Positions 30,943-34,542 are shown, counted from the stretch's first letter. The stretch: DNA of 64,000 nucleotides from Desulfosoma sp. (GCA_037481835.1 JBBFKW010000003.1:64001-128000); one strand, 5' to 3'. Translations and numbers: made by a program. Notes: generated by a model from the letters alone, not told the origin.

Positions 30943-31109
30943 GACGCCTCAAGCCTGTGGATGTGTGTCGCATGTTCGGGCATCGCCCATGCCGCCTCGT
31001 GCCCGTGGAAGCAAAGTGGGGTGTTCCGGCATCGCATCGTCTCCATTGTGCCGGGGAAAAGGGCCCGTGTAAAGCGTCCCGCCCACGGCTTCGCCTAGCG
31101 CTGGAAGAC

Positions 31110-31140
31110 GGAGGTTGGGGTGAGCGAAGCGAACCCCAAC
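31110..31140. repeat. Single GTAG-type REP copy (GGAG variant)
   Basis: GGAGGTTGGGGTGAGCGAAGCGAACCCCAAC. Confidence 0.85.
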
Positions 31141-31223
31141 ACAAAAACCCGGGAGCTTGCCGGAGAGTTCCAAACGTCTTTACTGCCGCGCAAGCGGGAG
31201 TCCCTTTAAAACGGAGGCCTCAC

Positions 31224-32139: not shown

Positions 32140-32466
32140 ATGGAATGTCCTGCGCTCAGTCGGGTTTACGTCATCTTCAAACGGACCAGGTGCTGCATCC
32201 GCATCTACACCGATCTGGACCGGGACGCCTTTCAAGCAGCTCTGGAAGAGTCCCTGGACAAAAAGAAAAGCCTTTTCCTTCACGTCTATCAGCCCAACGG
32301 CAACGGGTTTGTTCGAAGCCACACGACGGTGACACCTTACGAAGTCCTGGTGGACTGCGTTTTCCATGTCCAGGAGGTATCGAAAAACGGCGACGATCCC
32401 TGCACGGAAAAGGGGAAAGAAGCTCGTTTTCTGGAGCGGCTCTTTCGCGAGCACGGCCTCGCTTAG
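32140..32466 (+). CDS. Hypothetical protein (108 aa)
   Basis: GAGGA RBS, ATG 32140, globular composition. Confidence 0.6.
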   Translation: MECPALSRVYVIFKRTRCCIRIYTDLDRDAFQAALEESLDKKKSLFLHVYQPNGNGFVRSHTTVTPYEVLVDCVFHVQEVSKNGDDPCTEKGKEARFLERLFREHGLA

Positions 32467-32717
32467 GAACGGACCGAAGGACGGTTTGGCATAGCGGGCG
32501 CGCTCACGATCTTTTGCGAGCGTTTTGCAGGGGTTTCGGCCTGGATGTCGGGGAAAACCGCTCCCACGGGTAGCAGATCTCGGGCAAGCTTTTTGCGGCG
32601 GATGCATATCTCGGCCCGACTGCGCCGGCGGGGCGGCTTTTCACGTTCCGAAGGAAATATTGTTCCAGCCCCAGCGCCTTCGGAACCTTCCACGTTCCTT
32701 TCGGCACAGGATGGCTC

Positions 32718-33005
32718 ATGAGCGCTCAAGAAGACGAAGGCGGCTTGAGGGAACGGATTGCGGCCCTGGAAAGGGAACGCGACCTCCTGCAGGAGCGCGT
32801 CAAGGAATTGGAAGAGGCTCTCCAGGGGTGCTTGAGCCGGTCCCGGCACTGACTGGGGTGCGGCTTTGCCGACTGGTGGCTGGACGCCACACGGGTGCTC
32901 ACCGAAAAGACCGGCGCGTTTCCCTTCAAGAAACCATCCTGCCCCGCGGTCGCTGAGATAGAAGAAGAAGGAAGTGAGCCCCGCCCGCCGGAGGAGCCTT
33001 CATGA
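32718..33005 (+). CDS. Candidate 95-aa selenoprotein (coiled coil plus U-x-x-C; in-frame TGA 32850-32852); otherwise a 44-aa ORF or pseudogene
   Basis: MSAQEDEGGLRERIAALERERDLLQERVKELEEALQGCLSRSRH-TGA-LGCGFADWWLDATRVLTEKTGAFPFKKPSCPAVAEIEEEGSEPRPPEEPS; the second stop forms an ATGA overlap with the next gene. Confidence 0.55.
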
Positions 33006-34189
33006 AGGATCCGGAGCCGGCGTTCGGCTTTTTCATCGACGGAAAGCCCGTTGACGACGGCGCCCTGTCCCGTGCGCTCCCCATTGGGCTATCGGACGAT
33101 GCCCCGAAGATCGCCTACGCCCACTACTTCCAGGCATTGGCCGAAGCCCTGAGGGCAAGGAATTTCGAGCCCATTCGCCGAAGTCTCCAGGTGCTGACCG
33201 GAGAATCTTTCTTGCCCGATCGGATTCGCGACGTAAGAATCGACAGCGTGAAACACGGCGCGCTCTACCACGTGGCCAAGGTGACGGTCGACGTCAGCGG
33301 GCGCTCCTTTTCCATGGCCATGAATTCGGCCGTGCATCCCAAGCGCCAAGCGGCTCTCGAGCGCGAATGGACGACGCTGGAAAGCCTTTCAAAAACGGCA
33401 ACGGCGCCGTACGTGCCCAGAGGACTGTATCTGGGCGAAGGCTTGTGGCACGGCGCCTCCCGGGAAGCCAGTCCCTTTCGGTTTTTTCTCGCCCGGTGGT
33501 TCGACGGCTTTCATGAATGGCACCTGGAAAAAGGGCAGGGCGATCGTGTCGAAACCGTGAGGGTCTGGGACGGCTCAGCCGCGGGCCGCGAGCTCACCGA
33601 CGCGGAATCGTCGCAGCTCATGGAACAGGCGGCCTACATCCTCACTCTGGCGCTGGACAGGCAGGATTTCCGCCACATTCACCCATGGCACCACGCGGCG
33701 GGAGATTTTGTCGTCACGGTAGAAGGGCCCGCGGTCGCCGTGCGACTCATCGCCGCCAGAAACCTCAGGGTCCTGGTGCCTCCGGGGTCGGAACCCCATG
33801 AGCGCCTTTCCGCCGTGGCCGCCTTCTTTTTTGCCCTGACCTTTCGCCTCCGCCTGGATCGGGACCGCGGGACGGGCGATCTGGTCTGGGCCCCCGATCG
33901 CTGGCTTCCCGCCGTGGCAAGGGGCTTTCTCCGAGGCTGGACCGACGGGGCGCCGCCCCATGAGGCTTTTTCGACCGAGGACGTTCGGGCGGCCCTTGGG
34001 GCCTTCGGTGCCTCGGATTGGGAAACCGTAGGGGACCTTCTCGCGGACGATCTCATCGTGGACCCTGACGAAGAGCTCCTGGTGACCAGGCTTATCCCGG
34101 ATCATGCCCGCGATCTGCACCGCAGCCTTCGCTGGGATGACCTTTCGAGGTCGGTTGCGAAACAAAGCGTCGACGTCTTGAACTCTTAA
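33002..34189 (+). CDS. Hypothetical protein, possible degenerate kinase-like fold
   Basis: 395-aa ORF with GGAGGAG RBS; KHGALYH, WFDGFHEWH, PWHHAAGDFVV; fold is inference. Confidence 0.65.
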   Translation: MKDPEPAFGFFIDGKPVDDGALSRALPIGLSDDAPKIAYAHYFQALAEALRARNFEPIRRSLQVLTGESFLPDRIRDVRIDSVKHGALYHVAKVTVDVSGRSFSMAMNSAVHPKRQAALEREWTTLESLSKTATAPYVPRGLYLGEGLWHGASREASPFRFFLARWFDGFHEWHLEKGQGDRVETVRVWDGSAAGRELTDAESSQLMEQAAYILTLALDRQDFRHIHPWHHAAGDFVVTVEGPAVAVRLIAARNLRVLVPPGSEPHERLSAVAAFFFALTFRLRLDRDRGTGDLVWAPDRWLPAVARGFLRGWTDGAPPHEAFSTEDVRAALGAFGASDWETVGDLLADDLIVDPDEELLVTRLIPDHARDLHRSLRWDDLSRSVAKQSVDVLNS

Positions 34190-34261
34190 TGTGAAAGTCG
34201 CAGTTGTAATCCGGCAGGGCAGGACTTTCATGGTTCGTTGTCTTGCCGGATATTGATCTGG

Positions 34262-34353
34262 GTTGGGGTTCGCTCCGCTCACCCCAACCTACGAGTTTAT
34301 TGAACATTTTGGGCCGCCGACTGTAGGTTGGGGTGAGCGCAGCGAACCCCAAC
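34262..34353. repeat. Inverted pair of GTAG-type REPs (34262-34292, 34323-34353), REPIN-like
   Basis: Same 31-nt unit as at 9751, in opposite orientations. Confidence 0.9.
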
Positions 34354-34542
34354 AAAAACCGGGCATACGCTCGCACGTCTCGGTCTCACAACGAAGGATG
34401 AAACTCGAACCCCTGGAGCTTGTCCGAGAATCCTTTACATGAAAGTCTCTGTAACATACCGTAACTACGGACTTTCATTCTTCGTTGTCACAGGCGGCCC
34501 GCCATGGGGGTCAATGTGAAAGAATGGCGCTCTCGGCGTCTT

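Follow-up and report, generated by a model that had tools for sequence, protein, structure and literature searches.

The window analysed here is a 64,000-nucleotide stretch of a Desulfosoma sp. genome (GCA_037481835.1, JBBFKW010000003.1:64001-128000). Its element of interest is a small open reading frame (ORF) that is interrupted by an in-frame TGA at codon 45 and that we read as the candidate gene of a selenoprotein. The ORF lies between the genes for a Cys-rich protein of 108 residues and a protein of 395 residues with a protein-kinase-like fold, all on the same strand (Table 1). An earlier note on this DNA had proposed that the TGA encodes selenocysteine (Sec, U), and its description of the locus stands: the ATG at 32718 is preceded by an AGGA ribosome-binding site, the TGA at 32850-32852 sits in an H-U-L-G-C context, 50 further codons are open behind it until the TGA at 33003-33005, and a hairpin GTGGC-TGGAC-GCCAC follows at a TGA-to-loop distance of 28 nt. 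The translational coupling proposed in the same note held in part. Stop and following start overlap as ATGA in the Desulfosoma genomes (4/4), whereas in Desulfacinum the stop is a TAG placed 8 nt before the next ATG. Purine-rich motifs resembling a Shine-Dalgarno sequence lie 6-10 nt 5' of the ATG in the 8 orthologs. Around the TGA, the read-through product runs ...C-L-S-R-S-R-H-U-L-G-C-G-F-A-D-W-W.... By itself, an open frame of this kind is weak evidence, because 10.6% of the 94,337 TGA trinucleotides in this genome of 60.4% G+C are flanked by open frames as long (44 or more codons on the 5' side and 50 or more on the 3' side). It is the conservation in other genomes that lifts the candidate above chance.

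We searched the read-through product against six-frame translations of 60 related genomes and of its own genome (61 in total). Real homologs were found in 8 of the 61, each with exactly one in-frame TGA: the genome itself, all three others of its genus, the 3/3 genomes of a second genus and the 1/1 of a third. G006, which belongs to the carriers' family, and all 52 genomes of two other families returned noise matches only. A scan of named genomes placed the carriers in Desulfosoma and Desulfacinum; D. infernum DSM 9756 and D. hydrothermale DSM 13146 are among them. Metagenomes contributed 10 more loci, every one with TGA at the same column and one of them (L102) from a further lineage; some of these loci duplicate the genomes, and 16 of the 17 sequences compared are distinct. 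Taken over genomes and metagenomes, the Sec-column codon is TGA in 18/18 loci and Cys in one metagenomic protein, and it is never Trp or Arg. The search for homologs with TGA or Cys at position 45, which the earlier note had suggested as a check, hence came out in its favor. That note had also held that homologs ending at the TGA, or carrying Trp, Arg or another residue there, would count against Sec; we observed instead that the strongest conservation, LGCGFADWWLDA, lies just beyond the TGA. A search of 400 Desulfobacterota genomes and G000 gave real matches in family f1 only. Twelve further matches (E 0.002-0.009 per genome) were rejected, six of them having been inspected and none found convincing; the weak matches L065 and L075 carry faint C...C-P-G-C-G-like strings. 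We also read the upstream regions of 13 homologs of the kinase-like gene from genomes other than Desulfosoma and Desulfacinum (G006 and 12 members of family f3); no similar small ORF was found in three frames. As part of the explanation that we favor, the family is very probably restricted to a few heat-loving sulfate reducers in Desulfosoma, Desulfacinum and two or three related lineages.

The pattern of substitutions around the TGA bears on whether it is read through. The core LEEALQGCLSRSRH-U-LGCGFADWWLDA is nearly invariant across the homologs, and even in the most divergent version, LEDALQSCLSRARY-U-SGCGFAEWWQDATDVL, the replacements after the TGA are conservative (D to E, R to K, L to Q). 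Over the 19 codons that follow the TGA, variable columns number 4, 7 and 14 at codon positions 1, 2 and 3, respectively. After the TGA, the pooled ratio of non-synonymous to synonymous variation (pN/pS) is 0.29 for the reading frame itself; the two shifted forward frames reach 1.99-2.36 and the reverse frames 0.42-2.21 (0.42 being the antisense frame, the other four frames lying at 1.1-2.4). Over the 22 codons before the TGA the ratio is 0.21, so that the conservation on both sides for which the earlier note had asked is present. When both sides are considered in the other five frames, four give a pN/pS of 0.95-5.08 and the antisense codon-aligned frame gives 0.34-0.42. Gly47 is encoded by all four Gly codons, and the codons of Cys38 and Cys48 vary between TGC and TGT. 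After the TGA, no in-frame start codon precedes the conserved block (codon 46 is CTG, CTT or TCG), so that its translation requires the TGA to be read. Among strain variants on hot-spring metagenome contigs, tail indels sum to 3 nt, and none of the 40 differences listed falls within 32761-32941 (86 more lie outside that listing). The core of the candidate selenoprotein is much better conserved than its neighbors: between L102 and the window it is ~88% identical over residues 30-61 by our own count, compared with 55% for the 108-residue protein and 32% for the kinase-like protein, and the corresponding values between Desulfosoma and Desulfacinum are 55-63% for the 108-residue and 44-45% for the kinase-like protein.

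Protein databases hold this family largely in truncated form. Four proteins of 41-59 residues (P0006, P0007, P0008 and P0010) stop at ...CLSRSRH, exactly one residue before the TGA, and are gene calls cut off at that codon; the 69-residue P0003 stops at the same point. The Cys homolog P0002, a metagenomic protein of 84 residues, reads SRSRH-C-PGCGFAEWW and runs on past the Sec column. A profile search of 1.84 billion representative proteins returned the four cut-off calls, one distant relative of 178 residues and otherwise coiled-coil noise. The C-x-C of that distant relative, P0024, is shifted by one residue (hhalign probability 96.7%).

Downstream of the TGA, the hairpin resembles a bacterial selenocysteine insertion sequence (bSECIS). 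The published bSECIS model calls for a loop of 3-9 nt, a stem of at least 4 bp, a distance of 16-37 nt from the UGA and a minimum free energy of at most -7.5 kcal/mol, with a G in the first two loop positions that is followed by a G (PMC13188914). The 5-nt loop UGGAC, the 5-bp stem, the 28-nt spacing and the G-G pattern of the candidate all fit. Its 4-bp core UGGC/GCCA is present in 16/16 distinct sequences and the fifth pair in 11/16, with the loops UGGAC (7), UGGAU (7) and AGGAU (2). Five known selenoprotein genes of the same genome provided hairpins for comparison, each taken from behind the in-frame TGA (Table 1). With its closing pair, the candidate's loop reads C-UGGAC-G, exactly as in one mvhD SECIS element, and it is close to the loops of fdhA and of the other mvhD copy. 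Hairpins with a UGGNN loop, a stem of at least 5 bp and a spacing of 16-37 nt stand behind 393 of 94,572 TGAs (0.42%), a figure that is a rough guide only because the criterion was chosen after the candidate was known. An Rfam scan of 32500-33200 gave chance-level matches only (best E 0.45).

Table 1. Features of the selenoprotein candidate and its neighbors in the window, and hairpins of known selenoprotein genes of the same genome
Feature	Position	Strand	Details
108-residue Cys-rich protein gene	32140..32466	+	vicinal CC at residues 18-19 and two further invariant Cys
Shine-Dalgarno-like AGGA	32708..32711	+	6-nt spacer to ATG 32718
Candidate selenoprotein ORF	32718..33005	+	95 codons and terminal TGA; evidence: translation, orthologs, coding signature, AlphaFold2
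Cys38 codon TGC	32829..32831	+	invariant column; fifth d position of zipper
In-frame TGA, predicted Sec45	32850..32852	+	codon 45; same column TGA in 8/8 genomes and 10/10 metagenome loci
Cys48 codon	32859..32861	+	completes U-x-x-C; invariant column; synonymous TGC/TGT variation among orthologs
SECIS-like apical hairpin GUGGC-UGGAC-GCCAC	32876..32890	+	loop UGGAC at 32881-32885 (C-UGGAC-G with closing pair), 5-bp stem; 28 nt from UGA
395-residue protein-kinase-like-fold protein gene	33002..34189	+	start overlaps the candidate's stop as ATGA
fdhA hairpin			loop C-UGGCA-G; 22 nt from UGA
mvhD first copy hairpin			loop C-UGGCA-G; 19 nt from UGA
mvhD second copy hairpin			loop C-UGGAC-G; 22 nt from UGA
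Second fdh hairpin			loop GGUCU; 18 nt from UGA
selD hairpin			loop GGGAC or GGA; 19-20 nt from UGA

The machinery for Sec insertion, whose presence the earlier note had proposed to check, is complete in this genome: selA (627 bits), selB (411 bits), selD (377 bits, with an in-frame TGA of its own) and a canonical tRNA-Sec with anticodon UCA (74.5 bits). All 7 other carrier genomes contain a tRNA-Sec match of 74-75 bits. Further genes with an in-frame TGA include a second fdh-like gene (C16:12787-13536) and two of 14 mvhD/FlpD paralogs (C13:142901-143269 and C5:148759-149127), which points to a sizeable selenoproteome with mixed Sec and Cys paralogs. A separate region of the same genome, C21:4209-7326, holds a second selB-like gene (277 bits, over the family cut-off), an mvhD gene that lacks the TGA and a 92-nt tRNA. 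This tRNA lies ~1.1 kb from the second selB, with the mvhD gene between them, and scores 53 bits on the tRNA-Sec model; ARAGORN classifies it as tRNA-Cys with anticodon GCA, and it has an 8-bp acceptor stem and discriminator U. Loci L002, L010 and L093 were grouped with this observation, and a second tRNA match of the same kind (88-90 nt, 52-61 bits) occurs in all 8 carrier genomes and is missing from the non-carrier G006. The set looks like the tRNAReC/SelB* system for Cys recoding, and the features of the C21 tRNA fit the tRNAReC criteria used in PMC13582414. According to that paper, the UCA and GCA forms of tRNAReC both recode UGA with a SECIS element (citing Vargas-Rodriguez et al. 2018), and UGA in genomes that bear tRNAReC may be read as Cys.

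Together, these comparisons make it highly probable that the ORF is a real recoded gene whose codon 45 UGA is translated as Sec, and that it represents an undescribed family; Sec is the residue that we favor at this position. The small selenoprotein suggested by the earlier note is supported, as each finding which that note had named as speaking against it was looked for and none turned up. Several points weigh on the other side. The case for Sec incorporation and for expression is built from sequence comparison. The bare 5-bp hairpin has an energy of -6.7 kcal/mol, above the limit of -7.5 in the bSECIS model (for the 65-nt segment as a whole it is -22.1); calculated as for the bare hairpin, known SECIS hairpins of the genome span -4.0 to -10.8, with selD at -6.6 and the two mvhD copies at -6.9 and -4.0. 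The 28-nt spacing exceeds the 18-23 nt of the five known genes, while remaining within the 16-37 nt of the model. No compensatory substitutions were found in the stem, because it is locked by Trp-Trp and Ala codons, and selection on the RNA is thus inseparable from selection on the protein. In the folding analysis that the earlier note had recommended, loop, stem, spacing and G-G pattern agree with a bSECIS, the energy of the bare hairpin falls short of the limit, and the stem offers no covariation. RNAalifold gives as its consensus an alternative structure whose GACU loop stands at spacing 18; we rejected this structure as a SECIS element, its pairs being broken in 3/8 sequences and its loop having no G-G/U pattern. 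Cys homologs are numerous in most accepted families, and our searches gave a single one. Finally, the tRNAReC-like tRNA beside a second selB means that part of the product may carry Cys.

The predicted structure places the Sec in a turn behind a long helix. An AlphaFold2 model calculated from a 9-sequence alignment (mean pLDDT, the predicted local distance difference test score, 69) consists of a helix at residues 3-43, a turn at 44-48 formed by H-U-L-G-C, and a second helix at 49-64, with a pLDDT of 86-96 over residues 11-40 and a variable, disordered tail at 65-95. The model contains no strands and the protein has no thioredoxin-like Pfam match, so that the thioredoxin fold is missing around this UxxC. 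The heptad coiled coil that the earlier note had recognized shows a clean pattern in the N-terminal part, with L10, L17, L24 and L31 in d positions and I14, V28 and L35 in a positions. L17, L24, L31, C38 and U45 are invariant and spaced exactly 7 residues apart; together with L10 they make up the d series, and this invariant spacing suggests that Cys38 and Sec45 continue the hydrophobic seam. A fold search with the small-protein model (pLDDT 69) gave no match, and a sequence search of the PDB with the family profile gave designed or generic coiled coils only.

From this geometry we can propose how the protein might be made and what it might do. SelB and Sec-tRNA(Sec) would recode codon 45, directed by the stem-loop 28 nt downstream. 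Two chains would pair in parallel through a leucine zipper made of the N-terminal 43 residues, with Cys38 and Sec45 prolonging its d series and Cys48 lying in the turn that follows. Because Cys38 and Sec45 fall in the hydrophobic seam, a parallel dimer would stack Cys38, Sec45 and Cys48 near the axis and gather four Cys and two Sec along it. The resulting center could be a redox-switchable selenylsulfide or diselenide, or a binding site for a soft metal, and might act with or on the neighboring Cys-rich and kinase-like proteins. Such a zipper-borne redox or metal center is a tentative proposal, well short of even odds: dimer, center and partnership with the neighbors are read from sequence pattern and gene order. 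Similarly improbable, at about one chance in four, is the idea that Sec serves as a structural d-position residue of the zipper and not as an active-site residue, with Cys38/Cys38' and Sec45/Sec45' stacked and Cys48 near them as an interchain diselenide/disulfide switch or a soft-metal(loid) site within a three-gene sensor module.

Both neighbors named in this proposal are uncharacterized. Among the 61 genomes, the gene for the 108-residue protein has exactly the distribution of the selenoprotein gene, being present in the same 8 and absent from the rest. Of 14 further loci, 13 have this gene immediately upstream in the same orientation, and one is cut off. The vicinal Cys pair of the protein is almost invariant. 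Its known relatives are confined to the lineages with the selenoprotein gene; searches of Pfam, NCBIfam and the PDB turned up none, and a protein atlas search returned no usable match. The spacer between the two genes (32467-32717) measures 251 nt, against ~38 nt in G002, G003 and a contig of run X5; within the genome the extra sequence occurs only here, and it contains a 10-bp inverted repeat, GTTCCGAAGG...CCTTCGGAAC. Downstream, the 395-residue protein is modeled by AlphaFold2 with a pLDDT of 91.8 as a protein-kinase-like fold. Foldseek matched this model to PknG, PknB, RIPK2, GAK, WaaP and the N-acetylhexosamine kinase NahK (probability 1.0, template modeling scores of 0.3-0.49), and neither Pfam nor NCBIfam has a match to its sequence. 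K84, E172, H231 and D235 are invariant and E122 nearly so. The kinase-like family is widespread in Desulfobacterota, being present in 49/61 related genomes compared with 8/61 for the selenoprotein, and its gene lies directly downstream in 11 of the 14 further loci. The G004-type lineage has no kinase-like gene downstream, and there Ser42 is replaced by Ala and His44 by Tyr. At a larger scale, three copies of a palindromic element resembling repetitive extragenic palindromes, GTTGGGGTGAGCG.AGCGAACCCCAAC (31109-31145, 34259-34293 and 34323-34358), bracket a four-gene block of DUF169, 108-residue protein, selenoprotein and kinase-like protein, and read 'WGERSEPQ' in spurious ORFs. A scan for promoters and terminators gave the same counts as shuffled sequences.

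What, then, if the UGA is recoded, but mainly as Cys? A tRNAReC-type tRNA acting through the second SelB could use the same hairpin and yield a Cys protein. The genome provides the parts for this in the second selB-like gene and the tRNA-Sec-shaped tRNA with anticodon GCA on C21, which agrees with the tRNAReC criteria in PMC13582414, and the second tRNA match accompanies the gene in all 8 carriers and is lacking in G006. Under such decoding, however, TGA should interchange freely with TGC and TGT, whereas 18/18 loci keep TGA and one protein has Cys, even though the flanking Cys38 and Cys48 codons do drift between TGC and TGT. The canonical Sec pathway is present in full, and the hairpin loop matches those of classical selenoprotein genes in the same genome. 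We consider Cys as the main product unlikely, at roughly the level of an outside chance.

Two further explanations are less probable still than Cys insertion. The TGA could be a true stop that ends a zipper peptide of 44 residues, the conserved sequence behind it being a non-coding RNA that, for example, controls translation of the kinase-like gene. Gene callers do end the protein there (P0006, P0007, P0008 and P0010), the region has conserved secondary structure, and the end of the ORF abuts the start of the next gene. Yet substitutions are biased to third positions with a pN/pS of 0.29 in this frame only, replacements after the TGA are conservative, the Cys homolog runs through, the indels in the tail add up to 3 nt, the block after the TGA persists in the G004-type lineage with no kinase-like gene behind it, and Rfam finds nothing at an E below 0.45; on this evidence a true stop is very improbable. 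Least probable of all is a modified precursor peptide, in which phosphorylation of Ser40 or Ser42 by the kinase-like enzyme would be followed by addition of Cys or Sec to the dehydrated residues, giving lanthionine-like or selenolanthionine-like crosslinks. The immediate position of the kinase-like fold downstream, coupled in translation in Desulfosoma, the alternation of Ser with Cys and Sec in the core C-L-S-R-S-R-H-U-L-G-C, and the Ala in place of Ser42 in the sole lineage that has no kinase-like gene would agree with it. No lyase, cyclase, protease or exporter gene was recognized alongside, however, and the kinase-like family is widespread in genomes that have no such peptide (49/61 vs 8/61). 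The most conserved part is moreover central and not a variable core behind a conserved leader, and the long zipper is unlike a typical leader.

A recoded Sec family of this kind illustrates how such genes escape notice. Reading UGA as a stop leads to systematic mis-annotation of bacterial selenoproteins; public protein sets carry this family as fragments of 41-59 residues, and current methods miss such families. Since predictors rely on many Cys homologs, an almost purely Sec family is what they would overlook. Among known selenoproteins, a small coiled-coil protein with no thioredoxin fold and with Cys and Sec in zipper register would be unusual. Its fixed association with two uncharacterized proteins offers a handle on what an unannotated kinase-like family of wide occurrence in Desulfobacterota does, and cultured carriers exist, the two Desulfacinum type-numbered strains above (DSM 9756 and DSM 13146) among them, making the prediction directly testable. 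If the zipper-Sec reading were true, the protein would be a selenium-dependent device for redox or metal signaling with essentially no cysteine-only counterpart in nature.

Two groups of known proteins share the outline of this architecture. The C-terminal half of MerR-family proteins consists of a dimerization coiled coil that is followed by a metal-binding Cys loop. Like this half, and like designed Cys coiled coils, the candidate would combine a long dimerization helix, a loop with soft ligands and a short helix; the likeness is one of architecture only. A weak NCBIfam match to NmlR (E 0.025) falls on the coiled-coil helix. We rejected a MerR-like assignment, as the protein has no DNA-binding domain and no significant similarity to Pfam MerR models even at E 5. 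Zinc-binding anti-sigma (ZAS) proteins carry the motif H-x3-C-x2-C. They resemble the candidate in being small and all-helical, with one upstream Cys and a His/Cys cluster at the helix-turn junction. This assignment was rejected as well: the motif is H-U-x2-C and lacks the x3, His44 is Tyr in the G004 lineage, no sigma factor is adjacent and Pfam gives no match.

Family databases agree with the earlier note, whose author had not recognized the family. Against Pfam the selenoprotein matched 0 families at E <=0.01 and generic coiled coils only at E <=5, and NCBIfam release 20.0 gave two chance-level matches at E <=0.1, both to unrelated families. In a 2026 inventory (PMC13188914), none of the 119 families and subfamilies of Table 1 has this motif or architecture; the inventory models compared were those of Pfam, TIGRFAM and NCBIfam, with no match, entries represented only by cd or PTHR models having not been scanned directly. 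A full-text literature search for selenoprotein or selenocysteine with Desulfacinum or Desulfosoma found nothing, with bioRxiv supplements and parts of the BSepDB table lying outside its reach. In BSepDB, both genera are among the genomes analyzed and the screen covers known families only; the deep-Sep paper states that selenoproteins without Cys homologs may be missed (PMC12013277).

The closest company in kind is the computed hypothetical families DG, DW and DF (deep-Sep, PMC12013277) and OS_HP3, OS_HP4, GOS_B and GOS_C (PMC13188914), which are likewise small and have no known domains. Those families were accepted on the four criteria also considered here: conservation of the TGA and of its flanks, Cys homologs and a SECIS-like fold. 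Unlike them, the candidate does not match NF049953, NF041197, NF049942, NF041374, NF045500 or others (E <=0.1). With the UxxC selenoproteins that have a bSECIS (for example thioredoxin-like, glutaredoxin-like and GrdB; Table 1 of PMC13188914), it shares the UGA-x-x-Cys, the stem-loop with a G-G loop at 16-37 nt, a Cys homolog, a selenoprotein-rich Desulfobacterota lineage and the full Sec machinery. A C-x6-U-x2-C motif in a coiled coil is listed for none of the 119 entries in that inventory. Because databases, inventory and literature gave no match, we regard the family as undescribed, and as a putative new family within the known kind of bacterial SECIS-dependent selenoproteins. What sets it apart from the UxxC members of that kind is that a long helix, a turn and a second helix take the place of the thioredoxin fold, that it is almost entirely Sec (18 loci vs 1 Cys), and that a third invariant Cys precedes the Sec by 7 residues, in register with the zipper.

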